DNA of 21,177 nucleotides from a virus. The stretch's first letter is position 1. The number at the start of each line of letters is the position of its first letter. Position numbers and translations under genes: made by a program. The notes under the pieces were generated by a model, which was not told where the DNA came from, did no database searches, and saw nothing but the letters and a program-made list of their open reading frames with translations. Positions 530 to 6,492 of the stretch are shown one piece after another. The stretch is from positions 1-21,177 of IMG/VR virus record IMGVR_UViG_3300049215_000527; one strand, 5' to 3'.

Positions 530-580
530 TATACGACTTGACAGACCACCTTGACAAGTCGTATAGTGCTGATGTATCGT
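530..580 (+). promoter_or_regulatory. Tandem sigma70-type promoters overlapped by an inverted-repeat operator
   Basis: TTGACA 538-543 with TATAGT 562-567, and TTGACA 551-556 with TATCGT 575-580 (18-nt spacers). Perfect 11-bp IR tatacgacttg 530-540 / caagtcgtata 555-565. Confidence 0.75.
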
Positions 581-624: not shown

Positions 625-936
625 ATGCACGCGATGCAAGCGATTTACCGACAAGGCGATGTCCTGTTCATCCGCATCGAGGCGATGCCAGAAGAAGATC
701 TCACCCCCAAGGGGGATAACGTGATTGTGGAGGGCGAAACCACTGGCCATGCCCACCGCCTCACGGTGGGGCAGATCCTGGTGGACACCAAAACCACCAT
801 GTATCTGGCCTGTCAAACGATGTCGCAGGTGGTGCATGAAGAGCACCTCACCATTGACCTGCCGCCCGGACTCTATCGAGTACAGCGGCAGCGCGAGTAC
901 GTTGCACCAGACATTTCGCGCATGGTCATCGACTGA
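625..936 (+). CDS. Small His-rich beta-strand protein (RQGDV...GExTGHAH...HEEH...QREY family), usual partner of DUF6745 genes
   Basis: Motifs YRQGDV, EGETTGHAH, VHEEH, LPPGLYRVQRQREY. AAGGA RBS. Confidence 0.85.
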   Translation: MHAMQAIYRQGDVLFIRIEAMPEEDLTPKGDNVIVEGETTGHAHRLTVGQILVDTKTTMYLACQTMSQVVHEEHLTIDLPPGLYRVQRQREYVAPDISRMVID

Positions 937-1005: not shown

Positions 1006-2118
1006 ATGGATATATCCACTCCCAAAATCCGCAAAGGGCAGCGGGAACTCACCCCAGCACAATTGGCGTCGGCGCGCCTTTTTGCCCAGGAACGCATTCA
1101 AGCCATCCTCTCAACAGAGCCAGTCAATGAGTCCAGTGCCGAGGAACATCTGCGTCAAGCCTATCGTGCAGCGGGACTCGAACCGCCGACTACCATTCGT
1201 TGGTTTGACTCGCCACTCGGTTTTTGCCTTGCGCGGTCACTGCTCAATAAAGAGGTGGGGGACAGCGTGCGGGACAGCGTGCGGGACAGCGTGTGGGCCA
1301 GCGTGCGGGCCAGCGTGGGGGCCAGCGTGCGGGACAGCGTGGGGGCCAGCGTGCGGGACAGCGTGTGGGCCAGCGTGTGGGACAGCGTGCGGGCCAGCGT
1401 GGGGGCCAGCGTGGGGGCCAGCGTGCGGGCCAGCGTGGGGGCCAGCGTGGGGGCCAGCGTGCGGGACAGCGTGTGGGCCAGCGTGCGGGACAGCGTGGGG
1501 GACAGCGTGTGGGACAGCGTGTGGGCGTTATGGGACGCAGATGATTGCGCATTCCTCTGGTTCTTCCATACGGCGTTTCGGGAGAATGCCTTTATCCATT
1601 TCGCGCAGATGAATGAAATGATTCACGGTTATTTTCTGGGACGCAATGAGGCGTGGTTAGTGCGCCATGCCACGCGCCTTGAACGTGATGAGCGTGGGCG
1701 ACTCCATAGCGATAATGGGATGGCGATCCAGTACGCTGACGGCTGGGGCTTCTACGCCTGGCACGGCGTGCGTGTACCAGAACCAATCATCCTGCGGCCC
1801 GAAACCCTCACAAAAACGGACTGGTTGGCTGAGTCAAATCTTGAGGTGCGTCGCGTCATGCAAGAGCGACTGAGTCCCGATCAGTTCGTGGCCCTTGTCG
1901 GAGCCACTGCGATCCACGCCGATGAGTGCGGTACGTTGGTCGAAGTCGATCTCGGTGACGATCCGGAGCGTGTCGCGCGCTATGTCCATGTCCATGATAG
2001 CTCGACGCCCCGCGAATACTACCTGCGGGTACCACCGGACACAGAGCGCGCGCGGCAGGGTATCGCGTGGGGATTCGATATCCCTGAGGCAGAGTATTGC
2101 CCAGTGCAGGAAGCATGA
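1006..2118 (+). CDS. DUF6745-type protein with internal tetrapeptide repeat array
   Basis: WFDSP, RLHSDNGMAIQYADGWGFYAWHGVRVP, NLEVRRVM, DSSTPREYYLRVPP motifs, recognised from the DUF6745 family. Confidence 0.8.
   Translation: MDISTPKIRKGQRELTPAQLASARLFAQERIQAILSTEPVNESSAEEHLRQAYRAAGLEPPTTIRWFDSPLGFCLARSLLNKEVGDSVRDSVRDSVWASVRASVGASVRDSVGASVRDSVWASVWDSVRASVGASVGASVRASVGASVGASVRDSVWASVRDSVGDSVWDSVWALWDADDCAFLWFFHTAFRENAFIHFAQMNEMIHGYFLGRNEAWLVRHATRLERDERGRLHSDNGMAIQYADGWGFYAWHGVRVPEPIILRPETLTKTDWLAESNLEVRRVMQERLSPDQFVALVGATAIHADECGTLVEVDLGDDPERVARYVHVHDSSTPREYYLRVPPDTERARQGIAWGFDIPEAEYCPVQEA
1261..1524 (+). repeat. 22 tandem 12-nt units G(A/C)CAGCGTG(C/G/T)GG encoding [D/A]SV[R/G/W]
   Basis: Counted directly: 264 nt, with only 2 of 12 positions variable. 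Confidence 0.97.
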
Positions 2119-3005: not shown

Positions 3006-3241
3006 TGCGCAAACACCCCACCGCAGCCGTTCAGATGCCCCTCTTTGCCGAGCCAGCGCCACAGGGGTGGGCATTCGCCCTCATCCGCAAGCCGGATGCG
3101 TGGCTGGTCCGGTTCCGCAACGGTGCCACAGGCTATGGCCATTCGTGGCGCTGTGACCCCGCCACGCCACGCGAGGTGCTGGCAGCGCGGGCGCAAGCGG
3201 CGTGCGACCACTACAACGCGGCGCGAGGGGAGGCGGCATGA
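3002..3241 (+). CDS. Hypothetical phage protein
   Basis: GGAGG RBS. Overlaps coupled at both ends. Confidence 0.7.
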   Translation: MMRKHPTAAVQMPLFAEPAPQGWAFALIRKPDAWLVRFRNGATGYGHSWRCDPATPREVLAARAQAACDHYNAARGEAA

Positions 3242-4320
3242 TGCGCTGGGGGATTTTATTCGCGGGCATCGGCGGCGTGGAATGGGGTCTGGAGGCTGCC
3301 GGGCATCAGCCGATATGGGCCGTGGAAATGGACCCAATAGCCGCCGAGTATCATCGGCGCAACCATCCCAACACGCAGATGATCGCGTCGGATGTGCAGC
3401 AGGTCGATGTGTGCGAGTTGCCCAACATTGACGCGCTGCATGCCAGCCCACCCTGTCAAGGGCATAGTCGGGCGCGGAGCAAAGGTCTGTCAGTACGCGA
3501 GGATGTGTGGGTGGGGCGCGATATTCTGCGCTATGCCCGCGAGCTGGCCCCGCGCCTCATCACCGTCGAGAACGTGCCACAGTATGCCCGCCACGCCGTC
3601 TTTCGGGAGATTGTGGCAGGCCTGGACACGCTGGGCTACCACGTCGAATGGCGGGTGCTCAATTGCGCTGATTATGGCATTGCCCAGACCCGTGAGCGGC
3701 TCATTGTCCAGGCCAGACGTGATGGGCAGATAGCGTGGCCAGTGAAAGCCAAACGTCGGGTAGGCTGGTATGAAGTGATTCAGGATATCCTGCCAGCCCC
3801 TGACAGGCCACTTGCCCCGTGGCAGGCATCACGGTGGAACGCCGCATACAACCAGATGAGGCCAGTCTATGTGGACTGGCAATTTGCCGCAGCGCGTACC
3901 CCTGGCCACCAGAAAACCATGATGACCATTCGACAGGAACACGAGCCATCAGCAACCATCACGGCGCATAGCAACCGTCAAGAGGTCGTCTACCCAGTGT
4001 TGCTGGACGGGCAGTTGGTGTTCAATGACGTGCAGCGGCTGCACGTCATTGAACAGCGCGATCCGGCCCCCACCATCATGGCATCGGCCCATAGCGTCAA
4101 TTACATTGTCTATCCTGATGCTGGCCCGATGCGGGCGCGCTTAAATGCGCGGTGCTCAGCACGACTGCAAACGATACCCGATGCCGCGATTCTGCCTGAA
4201 ACACAGAGTCAGGCCATCAGGCTCATTGGCAATGCCGTGCCACCACTACTGATGCAACGCATCGTTGAGGCAAGCGCCACGGTGTGGCAGGGAAGTTTGT
4301 TTCATCAGGAGGCGGCATGA
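3238..4320 (+). CDS. dcm: DNA (cytosine-5)-methyltransferase
   Basis: Motif I LFAGIGG, IV SPPCQGHS, VI VENV, VIII QTRERL, IX ARLQT, X IGNAVPP. Start re-assigned to ATG 3238 after GGAGG. Confidence 0.95.
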   Translation: MMRWGILFAGIGGVEWGLEAAGHQPIWAVEMDPIAAEYHRRNHPNTQMIASDVQQVDVCELPNIDALHASPPCQGHSRARSKGLSVREDVWVGRDILRYARELAPRLITVENVPQYARHAVFREIVAGLDTLGYHVEWRVLNCADYGIAQTRERLIVQARRDGQIAWPVKAKRRVGWYEVIQDILPAPDRPLAPWQASRWNAAYNQMRPVYVDWQFAAARTPGHQKTMMTIRQEHEPSATITAHSNRQEVVYPVLLDGQLVFNDVQRLHVIEQRDPAPTIMASAHSVNYIVYPDAGPMRARLNARCSARLQTIPDAAILPETQSQAIRLIGNAVPPLLMQRIVEASATVWQGSLFHQEAA

Positions 4321-4559
4321 TGGCAACGCGCAAACAGCGCACAATCACCGCCGCCATGCTCACCACGTTAGAGCGGCAGTGCCAAGCGGAATATGACCGC
4401 GAAATAAAACAAGCCGATGAGGCTGCGGGGCGAGGCCGCATCACCCTAGCGCAGCACGAATACAACGAACGGTACCATTTCATCCTGCTGAGCGGCCAAA
4501 CCGATGTCATCCGGCGGCTGCGGGACATGCTGGCAGAGAGCGAGGTAGCGGCATGGTAG
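4317..4559 (+). CDS. Hypothetical phage protein (MMATRKQRT...)
   Basis: GGAGG RBS and ATGA overlap. Confidence 0.7.
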   Translation: MMATRKQRTITAAMLTTLERQCQAEYDREIKQADEAAGRGRITLAQHEYNERYHFILLSGQTDVIRRLRDMLAESEVAAW

Positions 4560-5341
4560 CACGCAAGCGGCAAGCGAACGGGGCCACGGTGCTAGAGGGC
4601 TTGCCCCACAATACGACGGTGTTGGGCTATCGTGGTGGCAAAAGCTATCTCGCCAAATATCTCGTGCCCCTCTTGCCGCCGCATGCGCGTTACCTGGAAA
4701 CCCACTTCGGCGGCGGATCGGTGTTCTTTGCCAAGCCGCCCGCGCCGTATGAAGTGGTTAATGACTTGGATCGCAACGTGACCACCTTCTTTCAGTGCTT
4801 GCGCGACCAGCCCACCGACCTTATCGCGCAACTATGGGCCACGCCGTACAGCCGCGAGGAATTCACCACGGCACTCCAGGAAGCGGATAACCTTTCGCCC
4901 TTGGAAGCCGCGCGGGTGTTCTTTATTCAGCAGAATCAGGGCTTTTCGGGCAAGGCGACCACTGAGGGTAATTGGGGCGTGGGACAAGATGTATCGCGGG
5001 AAATGGCGCAACAGCCCGCCAAATGGCAGACGAAAATCACCTTGCTCGCGGGCGCAGCCGAGCGCCTCCGTAACACGATGATTGAACACCAGGACGCGGC
5101 GCGGGTGATCGCCCGCTATGCCACACCCGAAACGCTTTTATACTGCGATCCGCCGTATCTGCCTGAGACGCGCACGGGTACCGATTATCGCCATGAGATG
5201 ACGGCAGCCGACCATGAGCGCCTGTTGCGCGTGCTGACCACTACCGACGCGATGGTGGCCCTCAGTGGCTACGATAGCGAGATGTATCGGGATATGCTGA
5301 CGGGCCTGGCACCTGACCACCTGGGACGTATCGGCGCATAG
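4553..5341 (+). CDS. dam: DNA adenine methyltransferase (Dam/D12 class), C-terminus frameshifted
   Basis: YRGGKS, YLETHFGGGSV, VVNDLD, YCDPPY, VALSGY. Confidence 0.92.
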   Translation: MVARKRQANGATVLEGLPHNTTVLGYRGGKSYLAKYLVPLLPPHARYLETHFGGGSVFFAKPPAPYEVVNDLDRNVTTFFQCLRDQPTDLIAQLWATPYSREEFTTALQEADNLSPLEAARVFFIQQNQGFSGKATTEGNWGVGQDVSREMAQQPAKWQTKITLLAGAAERLRNTMIEHQDAARVIARYATPETLLYCDPPYLPETRTGTDYRHEMTAADHERLLRVLTTTDAMVALSGYDSEMYRDMLTGLAPDHLGRIGA

Positions 5342-5673: not shown

Positions 5674-6492
5674 ATGCGGATGCCCTGGTTGCGGCTTCAC
5701 TCTGAAGCACGCTGCGACCCGAAACTAGAGCTATTGTCGGATGCCCAATTTCGGGTATGGTTCCGCTTACTCTGCTTTGCCAACGATCAGCCAGAGCGTG
5801 GCACCATCGCTTTTCGTTCGATGAAGCTCTTAGCGGTGCAAGTCTCCAAAGGTGATGAGGCGCTGCTTGCTGAGGTCTTGGCCCTCTTAGTCGAACTCAA
5901 TATCATCGACGTGGACGATGAAGATGAATTGGTAGCGTTCGTCCACTGGACGGAGCGCCAGTACGATAAGCCATCCGACGCCCCTCAAGCCACGCGCGAA
6001 CGCAAAGCGCGTCAGCGTGACAAGAGCGATCCGCCACCAACAGATCCACTTACTTCCACCCCGTCACGCGATGTCACGCCGATGTCACGCGATGTCACGC
6101 GATGTCACGGGCAAGAGGAGAAGAGAGAAGAGGAGAAAGAGGAGACGACGAACGCGCGCGCAAGCGCCTCACTGGTACCCGATGTGTCTACATCGTCGTC
6201 ATCCCTTTCCGAGCAATTACAGCGTGAACTCAATATTTACACCCACGCTGTTGATGCAATCGTGGCGGAATATGCCCCACAGCTTGAGGCAATCGGAAAA
6301 ACCCTCTTGGGAGAAGCTGCTAAGTGGCGACAAGACAACCCAACAGGTCGTTTAAAGAATTTTGAAAATTGGCTGAGAATTGCGCTCAAGCCAGATAGTT
6401 TTTCCGCGCAAGCACCACCCCGCGCAAGCCCCACCGCGCCACCTTCCAAGAAATACCGGACCCTTGAAGAAACCCGTAAGAAATCGGCATAG
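5674..6492 (+). CDS. Phage replication initiator / replisome organizer (lambda O-like role)
   Basis: N-terminal WLRLH...DPKL...WFRLLC, ERKARQR, central iterons, EEKREEEKE linker. Lies directly upstream of the helicase. Confidence 0.85.
   Translation: MRMPWLRLHSEARCDPKLELLSDAQFRVWFRLLCFANDQPERGTIAFRSMKLLAVQVSKGDEALLAEVLALLVELNIIDVDDEDELVAFVHWTERQYDKPSDAPQATRERKARQRDKSDPPPTDPLTSTPSRDVTPMSRDVTRCHGQEEKREEEKEETTNARASASLVPDVSTSSSSLSEQLQRELNIYTHAVDAIVAEYAPQLEAIGKTLLGEAAKWRQDNPTGRLKNFENWLRIALKPDSFSAQAPPRASPTAPPSKKYRTLEETRKKSA
6063..6109 (+). repeat. Iteron array (putative phage origin)
   Basis: gtcacgc, then gatgtcacgc x3 and gatgtcacg. Inverted copy gcgtgaca at 6015-6022. Purine-only tract follows. 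Confidence 0.8.

Follow-up and report, generated by a model that had tools for sequence, protein, structure and literature searches.

A tandem 12-nt repeat array as the putative hypervariable centre of an early phage DUF6745 protein

The DUF6745 protein of an uncultured 85-kb phage, whose host is probably a member of the Ktedonobacteria, was found to carry a central tract of tandem tetrapeptide units encoded by an in-frame 12-nt repeat. Taking the explanatory chain as a whole and loosely, we consider it fairly probable that the array forms a hypervariable centre in a protein that is made early in infection. The window, that is, the whole stretch of DNA that was analyzed (21,177 nt), covers positions 1-21,177 of the IMG/VR record IMGVR_UViG_3300049215_000527, which is linear, 85,269 bp in length and 83% complete. 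The named homologues of the protein, P0001, were mostly from Ktedonobacteria MAGs. The features of the gene and its surroundings are listed in Table 1.

Table 1. Features of the DUF6745 gene and its upstream neighbourhood, in window coordinates.
Feature	Position	Strand	Basis or location
Two overlapping near-consensus sigma-70-type promoter-like sites	538..580	+	upstream of the two-gene module
Gene for the small His-rich partner protein, 103 aa, phrog_27831	625..936	+	PHROGs
Perfect 14-bp stem with a 3-nt loop	943..973	+	between the partner gene and the DUF6745 gene
DUF6745 protein gene, P0001, 370 aa	1006..2118	+	translation; Pfam PF20530
Conserved N-terminal domain, aa 1-85	1006..1260	+	alignment of homologues
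22 tandem 12-nt units encoding [D/A]-S-V-[R/G/W]	1261..1524	+	codon-aligned dissection
C-terminal DUF6745 domain, aa 178-369	1537..2112	+	Pfam
Order of the two-gene module: promoter-like sites, partner gene, hairpin, DUF6745 gene	538-580, 625-936, 943-973, 1006-2118

Overall organization of the DUF6745 protein and its family

As evident from the Pfam search, the C-terminal domain of P0001 matched PF20530 with an E-value of 1.1e-32 and a score of 113.5 bits, against a cut-off of 27, and the match covered profile positions 12-205 of 206. The N-terminal domain was without a family match, and four of its residues (Q19, Y53, W66 and P70) were invariant among 92 homologues. Searches of the protein against PHROGs, NCBIfam and PADLOC gave nothing meaningful; the PADLOC matches reached E-values of only 0.004-0.08 and fell on the repeat. 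The arrangement of a conserved N-terminal domain, a period-4 Val tract and a C-terminal DUF6745 domain was typical of the family, and the gene is an ordinary full member of the huge, little-studied PF20530 family. No paper that mentions DUF6745 or the motif strings turned up in a literature search.

The breadth of the family was evident from a profile search of 1.84 billion representatives, which returned 13,181 clusters (50% identity) at E ≤ 0.001, with 10,437 passing 1e-10 and 4,245 passing 1e-30. At 40-63% identity, many homologues carried [DA]SV[RGW] arrays of 5-50 units, and others carried degenerate xSVx tracts. Among 144 newly returned top representatives (50% level), 44 had at least 5 units and 24 had at least 10, nearly all of the form [DA][SQ]V[RGW]. 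The period-4 tract appears to be an old protein feature, because homologues without a DNA repeat still had V, L or I at each fourth residue, one of them in the form [AD][PQ]V[WRG]; the perfect arrays would then be homogenized versions of this tract.

Cultured carriers of DUF6745 included the Microcystis phage Ma-LMM01 and the Mycobacterium prophage prophiGD102-1, and the genes beside bacterial homologues were often prophage early genes, for example, those for RecT, DUF5131, Lar and endonuclease I. A search of the ESM Atlas returned DUF6745 clusters only, among them cyanobacterial DUF6745-LRR fusions and one in which DUF6745 is joined to the partner fold, and a Pfam search of ten long DUF6745 proteins revealed tandem DUF6745 copies only, with no informative fusion. 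Related DNA was collected as 157 loci from viral, genome and metagenome collections. Within this set, the bacterial or MAG loci L015, L017, L084, L088 and L107 each contained two DUF6745 genes a few kb apart as tandem paralogues. Additionally, the proteins P0131, P0132 and P0139 each carried two to four DUF6745 stretches in a single chain.

The repeat array in the window

Codon-aligned dissection revealed that every unit of the array reads G[A/C]CAGCGTG[C/G/T]GG in the frame of the DUF6745 gene. Base 2 was A in 10 units and C in 12, and base 10 was C in 9, G in 7 and T in 6; no other base varied across the 264 nt, and the array therefore contained zero synonymous changes. The unit types were AR (6 units), DW (5), AG (5), DR (3), DG (2) and AW (1). 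Arg, Gly and Trp are the three residues encoded by NGG codons. Tandem Repeats Finder reported a period of 12, 22.7 copies and a score of 376 at 1255-1526, and a degenerate unit (KEVG) was present just 5' of the array. These results confirmed the sequence-only reading, which had described 22 units that vary at exactly two nucleotides to give D/A and R/G/W, the occurrence of all six combinations in a non-periodic order, and the lack of any synonymous change.

A random shuffle would give a unit order indistinguishable from the one observed; no block of more than 3 units recurred (p=0.56), and the entropy was 2.39 of 2.58 bits. The same reading had spoken of a combinatorial code, a wording that we abandoned, as the order looks random and whole blocks are gained or lost between near-identical genes. 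In the window alone, a purely non-synonymous pattern had a probability of approximately 0.33, given that the array holds just three mutational alleles and that a single-base change would be silent in 31% of cases. The pattern thus appears to be weak from the window by itself and to become significant only through the family comparison given below.

The array had a G+C content of 77%, above the 62% of the gene and the 59% of the window, and a GGG run occurred in 21 of the 22 units. Such runs, repeated each 12 nt, could point to a function of the DNA or RNA rather than the protein, for example, as a recombination hot spot, and the length of the array, 264 nt, exceeds a short read and would be compatible with an assembly artefact. 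We consider this pair of explanations very improbable. The longest exact repeat inside the array was 47 nt, and the array could therefore be resolved by an assembler with k>47 or by ordinary reads of 100-150 nt; a unique assembly is possible, and an artefact is unlikely. A role for the nucleic acid is further opposed by the intact frame between two conserved domains and by the homologues that lack the DNA repeat and nevertheless retain the protein periodicity. The GGG runs themselves arise automatically when NGG codons are followed by D/A codons that start with G, and RNA structure in the array was rejected, as the array RNA folded worse than shuffled sequences (z +5.0). The nearest relative of the window gene was only 63% identical in the homologue search, and the data on array variability hence come from other members of the family.

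Codon comparison within and between arrays

We compared the codons of 72 non-identical arrays of at least 10 units (1434 units), each with its own consensus. Within arrays, 1383 codon differences were non-synonymous and 85 were synonymous, a ratio of 16:1, and the differences peaked at base 2 (486) and base 10 (683). The silent sites behaved differently within and between arrays. In particular, the Val codon was GTC in 36 arrays, GTG in 24, GTT in 7 and GTA in 5, with a within-array purity of 0.97, and Ser was encoded by AGC, TCC, TCG or TCT depending on the array, with AGY and TCN codons mixed in only one of 56 arrays. Arg was encoded solely by AGG in 42 arrays and solely by CGG in 16, including that of the window, and the two codons were mixed in a single array. 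The Asp and Ala codons also differed between arrays, and the D/A polymorphism was present on both GAC/GCC and GAT/GCT backgrounds. Silent sites that are uniform within arrays and different between them bear the signature of concerted evolution.

Against this homogenization, the two-site polymorphism is evidently maintained at the amino-acid level, because D/A and R/G/W are found again whatever the silent background, and two different codons serve for Arg. The residue shares were near even (A 362 and D 344; G 249, R 238 and W 233, in 778 units). Identical neighbouring units were under-represented, with a lag-1 identity of 0.094 versus 0.165 expected and a z-score of -6.7, which, like the other z-scores from the pooled arrays, is inflated because the arrays are phylogenetically related. 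Unit-order periodicity beyond lag 1 was not found in the pooled arrays. Oxidative damage concentrated at G-runs could have produced the variable sites, but this mutational hot-spot explanation was rejected, as the D/A polymorphism persists in GAT/GCT arrays, where that context is missing. It had been proposed from the window that ongoing shuffling or gene conversion homogenizes the units while permuting two surface residues; the homogenization and the two varying residues gained support from the silent-site uniformity and from the variation at bases 2 and 10 across the family.

These data also bear on the explanation that the tract is a neutral, low-complexity, slippage-prone and disordered linker, in which the variable sites are chance survivors of a recent amplification of units. 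The window agrees with such a linker in that its array has three alleles only, with the probability of approximately 0.33 given above, and a random unit order. However, the same two codon positions varied in 72 arrays on different silent backgrounds with a 16:1 non-synonymous excess, Arg was reached through two different codons, residue use was balanced, and identical neighbours were avoided. Furthermore, the non-repetitive homologues conserve a hydrophobic residue at each fourth position, and the AlphaFold2 model is confident and helical. We therefore regard a neutral linker as improbable.

Length and order variation among relatives

In six clusters at 90% identity, the N-terminal flanks (77-94 aa) and C-terminal flanks (196-220 aa) departed from identity in two proteins only, by at most one residue per flank, and the arrays of proteins in the same cluster differed by 1-6 whole units, sometimes with rearranged ends. 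At the DNA level, the loci L117 (23 units) and L131 (47 units) had 600-nt flanks that were 100% identical and arrays that differed by one clean indel of 288 nt (24 units) with 27 nt of junction homology. The loci L098 (33 units) and L122 (51 units) were identical over 200 nt on both sides, and their arrays were wholly different but drawn from the same codon set; L098 and L100 differed by a 156-nt indel with a 9-nt junction overlap. Across the comparisons, flanks of 99.8-100% identity stood beside arrays that differed by 1-24 units or in their entire unit order. The alignment of homologues, run on the family loci and on the 90% clusters, thus revealed variation in both unit number and unit order, and the earlier proposal of a hypervariable module between conserved domains was borne out for the family.

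Every indel seen in the DUF6745 arrays left the frame intact, in keeping with a 12-nt unit. A phase-variable, simple-sequence contingency locus was excluded, as the unit is divisible by three and the indels seen keep the frame. All data on array variation come from metagenome or MAG assemblies, in which repeats can be mis-assembled; some of the differences could be of this origin, yet the junction homologies, at 9-27 nt, fall short of the k-mer lengths with which assemblies usually end. The short, degenerate tracts of 7 units were almost unchanged at a flank divergence of 1-5%. This contrast between variable long arrays and stable short degenerate tracts agrees with the prediction of homology-dependent slippage or unequal recombination.

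Unequal recombination or slippage, combined with selection, is the likely mechanism, because neither a reverse transcriptase nor a donor copy was found in the record. A dedicated diversifier, whether a diversity-generating retroelement or a set of silent donor cassettes acting by gene conversion, would account for variation that is limited to defined nucleotide positions, and Pham et al. likened the repeat of the Tweety protein gp54 to VR2 of the Bordetella phage BMP-1 (PMC2884959). Nevertheless, a search for RVT_1 reverse transcriptases found none in the 85-kb record (83% complete), in a test in which control genomes gave matches, and the repeat occurred only once in the same record. Variation at the two sites is A/C and C/G/T rather than adenine-specific, and at site 10 most arrays use only three bases, with a single Arg codon, which argues against hypermutation. 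Within the limits of a record that is 83% complete, the array was rejected as a retroelement target for want of a reverse transcriptase, a template repeat and adenine-specific change; a dedicated diversifier is largely refuted and has only the slightest probability of being correct.

Predicted structure

AlphaFold2, supplied with a 92-sequence alignment, predicted the whole of P0001 with a mean pLDDT of 90 and a pTM of 0.83. The N-terminal domain was predicted to be helical with one short strand (pLDDT 83-98), and the repeat tract was predicted to form helices at residues 89-111, 114-153 and 157-171 (pLDDT of about 74-91), a model that is provisional as the alignment is ambiguous inside the repeat. 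If the tract is helical, simple helix geometry, rather than any tool output, indicates that the invariant Ser-Val pair would lie opposite the variable pair and that the two stripes would precess by 40 degrees per unit. A period of 4.0 is ill-suited to ordinary coiled-coil packing.

The DUF6745 domain folded alone gave a pLDDT of 89. Foldseek found no significant match of the whole model in the PDB, and the DUF6745 domain was likewise without a solved-structure match, with a best E-value of 0.07 in Foldseek and a best Z-score of 3.9 in the wide VIA-align search. Sequence searches against the PDB also returned nothing significant. In BFVD, the domain matched other phage DUF6745 proteins only, for example, that of Microcystis phage LMM01 (E 1e-9).

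We also considered whether the DUF6745 protein is an immunity- or antitoxin-like helical partner of a toxin, as in a polymorphic toxin or TA-type module, rather than a counter-defence adaptor. In favour of this, VIA-align placed the helical half near 8ows_A, from the polymorphic toxin PT1-PIM1 complex (Z 7.5, rmsd 3.4, 107 residues), and returned 9t38_B, from an Rhs2-CT/RhsI2 complex (Z 5.7), but Z-scores of 7.5 and 5.7 are below the stated noise of the tool for helical bundles. The weak contact of the C-domain profile with AvrRxo1-ORF2, at an E-value of 0.047, was not significant. The gene does belong to a conserved two-gene module; however, no toxin family was found in its partner by the Pfam, PHROGs, PADLOC, NCBIfam and PDB searches. 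An immunity function of this kind is therefore quite improbable in our judgement.

The small His-rich partner and the early region

The partner protein had no Pfam family and no solved-structure match. A homologue of it was adjacent to the DUF6745 gene in 97 of the 157 fetched loci, usually directly upstream and sometimes downstream, and these loci were from Chloroflexota, Acidobacteriota, Melainabacteria, Actinomycetota and proteobacterial MAGs. The window contains the same two-gene module, with the neighbouring small protein and its GE.TGH.H / H.EH motif directly upstream. Over the family, the conserved motif was RQGDVL..P..GE.TGH.H..H.EH..QREY, in which four His residues and the acidic residues are conserved; judging from this motif, the partner may be a mini metal-binding beta protein that is loosely cupin-like. 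Additionally, a viral cluster of 366-aa DUF6745 proteins in the ESM Atlas included a part with the partner fold (TM 0.77), which suggests a fusion of the two proteins.

Upstream of the module, the promoter-like sites were TTGACA-18-TATAGT at 538-567 (11/12) and TTGACA-18-TATCGT at 551-580 (10/12), both identified as consensus matches only. The region of the intergenic hairpin (930-1010) had a minimum free energy of -26.8 kcal/mol and a z-score of -3.3, and none of 200 shuffles folded as well. There is no T-run after the stem-loop, which could be a processing or attenuation site.

On the 3' side of the module, Pfam and PHROGs revealed genes for C5 and N6 DNA methyltransferases, a DnaD-like loader and a DnaB helicase, and the DUF6745 gene sits in the early region of the phage. 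The C5-cytosine and D12-class N6-adenine methyltransferase genes were found back to back at 3202-5341, just downstream of the module (Pfam), an arrangement that fits an anti-restriction early region. We also observed a 10-nt unit, GTCACGCGAT, repeated 4.6 times at 6063-6109 within a DnaD-like, replication-initiator-like gene at 5674-6492 (Tandem Repeats Finder, PHROGs); its position inside this gene is reminiscent of origin iterons within an initiator gene.

Proposed mechanism and significance

We propose that the DUF6745 protein would be made early in infection together with the small His-rich partner, and that its array would be shaped by two opposing processes. Unequal recombination or replication slippage of the 12-nt units would keep the silent sites identical within an array and would change the number and order of the units far faster than point substitutions change the flanks. 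Selection on the protein would at the same time keep two sites polymorphic against homogenization, D/A at position 1 and R/G/W at position 4, with the residues in nearly equal shares and identical adjacent units avoided. From the comparisons of related arrays, we consider this combination of unit recombination and a selected two-site polymorphism highly probable. In the next step, the tract would form helical segments between the N-terminal and DUF6745 domains, with Ser-Val and the variable pair on opposite sides of the helix; on the strength of the model, the chances for and against this step are evenly balanced.

Finally, changes in the length and surface of the tract may retune the engagement of a host or rival-phage target by the two domains beside it and possibly by the partner. 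The tract would then serve phage-host conflict as an evolvable adaptor, which is the role demonstrated for gp54, an unrelated tetrapeptide-repeat protein. This arms-race reading, for which the sequence-only reading had suggested a recognition, decoy or polymer-forming protein, draws on the Tweety gp54 analogy (PMC2884959, PMC9262239), the early-operon context and the hypervariability. The context of conflict is that the DUF6745 gene lies in an early operon beside two DNA methyltransferases and that homologues have the RecT, DUF5131, Lar and endonuclease I genes as neighbours. A counter-defence role for DUF6745 proteins would follow only from the analogy with gp54, and we put this last step forward tentatively, as somewhat less than an even prospect.

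A still broader reading would take DUF6745 as a very widespread evolvable adaptor platform of phages and prophages, a tunable class with a new fold, in which the tract would be an interaction surface open to rapid rewriting and the number and order of the units set which defence or rival-phage protein is engaged. The protein would act with the His-rich partner, and some phages would supply the tract as detached mini-genes. We regard this platform as rather unlikely; if it were true, tunable counter-defence or exclusion proteins would grow from the single case of Tweety gp54 into a major class. Should the gp54 analogy hold, tunable repeat proteins would be a general strategy in phages of many phyla, beyond the mycobacteriophages, and very few generations of ordinary recombination in a 12-nt array would suffice for retuning. 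A further point of interest is that the array offers a clean natural case, measurable from sequence, of selection that holds two codon positions polymorphic against concerted evolution. The DUF6745 domain and the partner are good targets for structural and functional work, as neither resembles a known fold.

Comparison with known repeat systems

P0001 shows no essential difference from the other phage, prophage and bacterial DUF6745 (PF20530) proteins; it shares the three-part architecture and the [DA][SQ]V[RGW] tract with many of them, and also the adjoining small partner. Among unrelated proteins, the Plasmodium circumsporozoite arrays of the NANP/NVDP type are also built from tetrapeptides, with few unit variants, a variable copy number and conserved flanks. 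These circumsporozoite repeats (described in PMC8795123) differ from the DUF6745 arrays in that they belong to a eukaryotic surface antigen under antibody selection, with an unrelated sequence and setting, and the comparison is one of analogy only. VR2 of bbp36 from the Bordetella phage BMP-1 is, like the window array, repeated in tandem and in frame within a phage gene; bbp36 is non-essential, and the copy number of VR2 varies from 9 to 20 among isolates, but it has a 24-bp unit with spacer variants and lies in a different protein; this comparison was made by description (PMC2884959).

Tweety gp54 was reported to contain 48 tetrapeptide repeats, with 26 in Che8 gp57 and 15 in PMC gp51 (Pham et al. 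2007, PMC2884959). Each gp54 repeat begins with two unchanging alanines, and no variation occurs at third codon positions; the authors inferred selection for variation (PMC2884959). According to Hatfull 2022 (PMC9262239), which cites Dedrick et al. 2017 for this, the mutations by which phages escape the Phrann gp29/gp30 defence map to gene 54 and alter its repeat number, and the protein was accordingly described as 'tunable'. We re-measured the gp54 array in Tweety gene 54 (L159:1145-2269) and found 49 units by pattern, with the consensus GCC GCA GGG AGC and variation almost entirely at bases 7, 8, 10 and 11.

Like P0001, gp54 is a phage protein (non-structural, of about 375 aa) with a long in-frame 12-nt array between conserved termini. 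In both arrays, each unit keeps two residues constant and varies the other two, and the variation is at first and second codon positions, whereas the third positions are fixed. Both the gp54 and the window arrays coincide with a G+C peak, and the repeat number differs between close relatives of gp54 and, in the assembled loci, between near-identical DUF6745 family members other than P0001. We also observed that the alternation of Gly and Trp (GGG/TGG, one first-base change) recurs in these two non-homologous repeat proteins.

In contrast, the motifs are different (AA[G/W/Q][S/Y] in gp54 and [D/A]SV[R/G/W] in DUF6745), the C-terminal part of gp54 is only about 45 aa compared with the 195-aa DUF6745 domain, and gp54 has no His-rich partner gene nearby. 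There was no Pfam family in gp54, hhalign gave a probability of 0.3% against the DUF6745 alignment, and a tblastn search with P0001 of 50,697 phage records did not find Tweety. By these sequence comparisons, Tweety gp54 is an analogue rather than a homologue of the DUF6745 protein, and it is the closest case that has been described.
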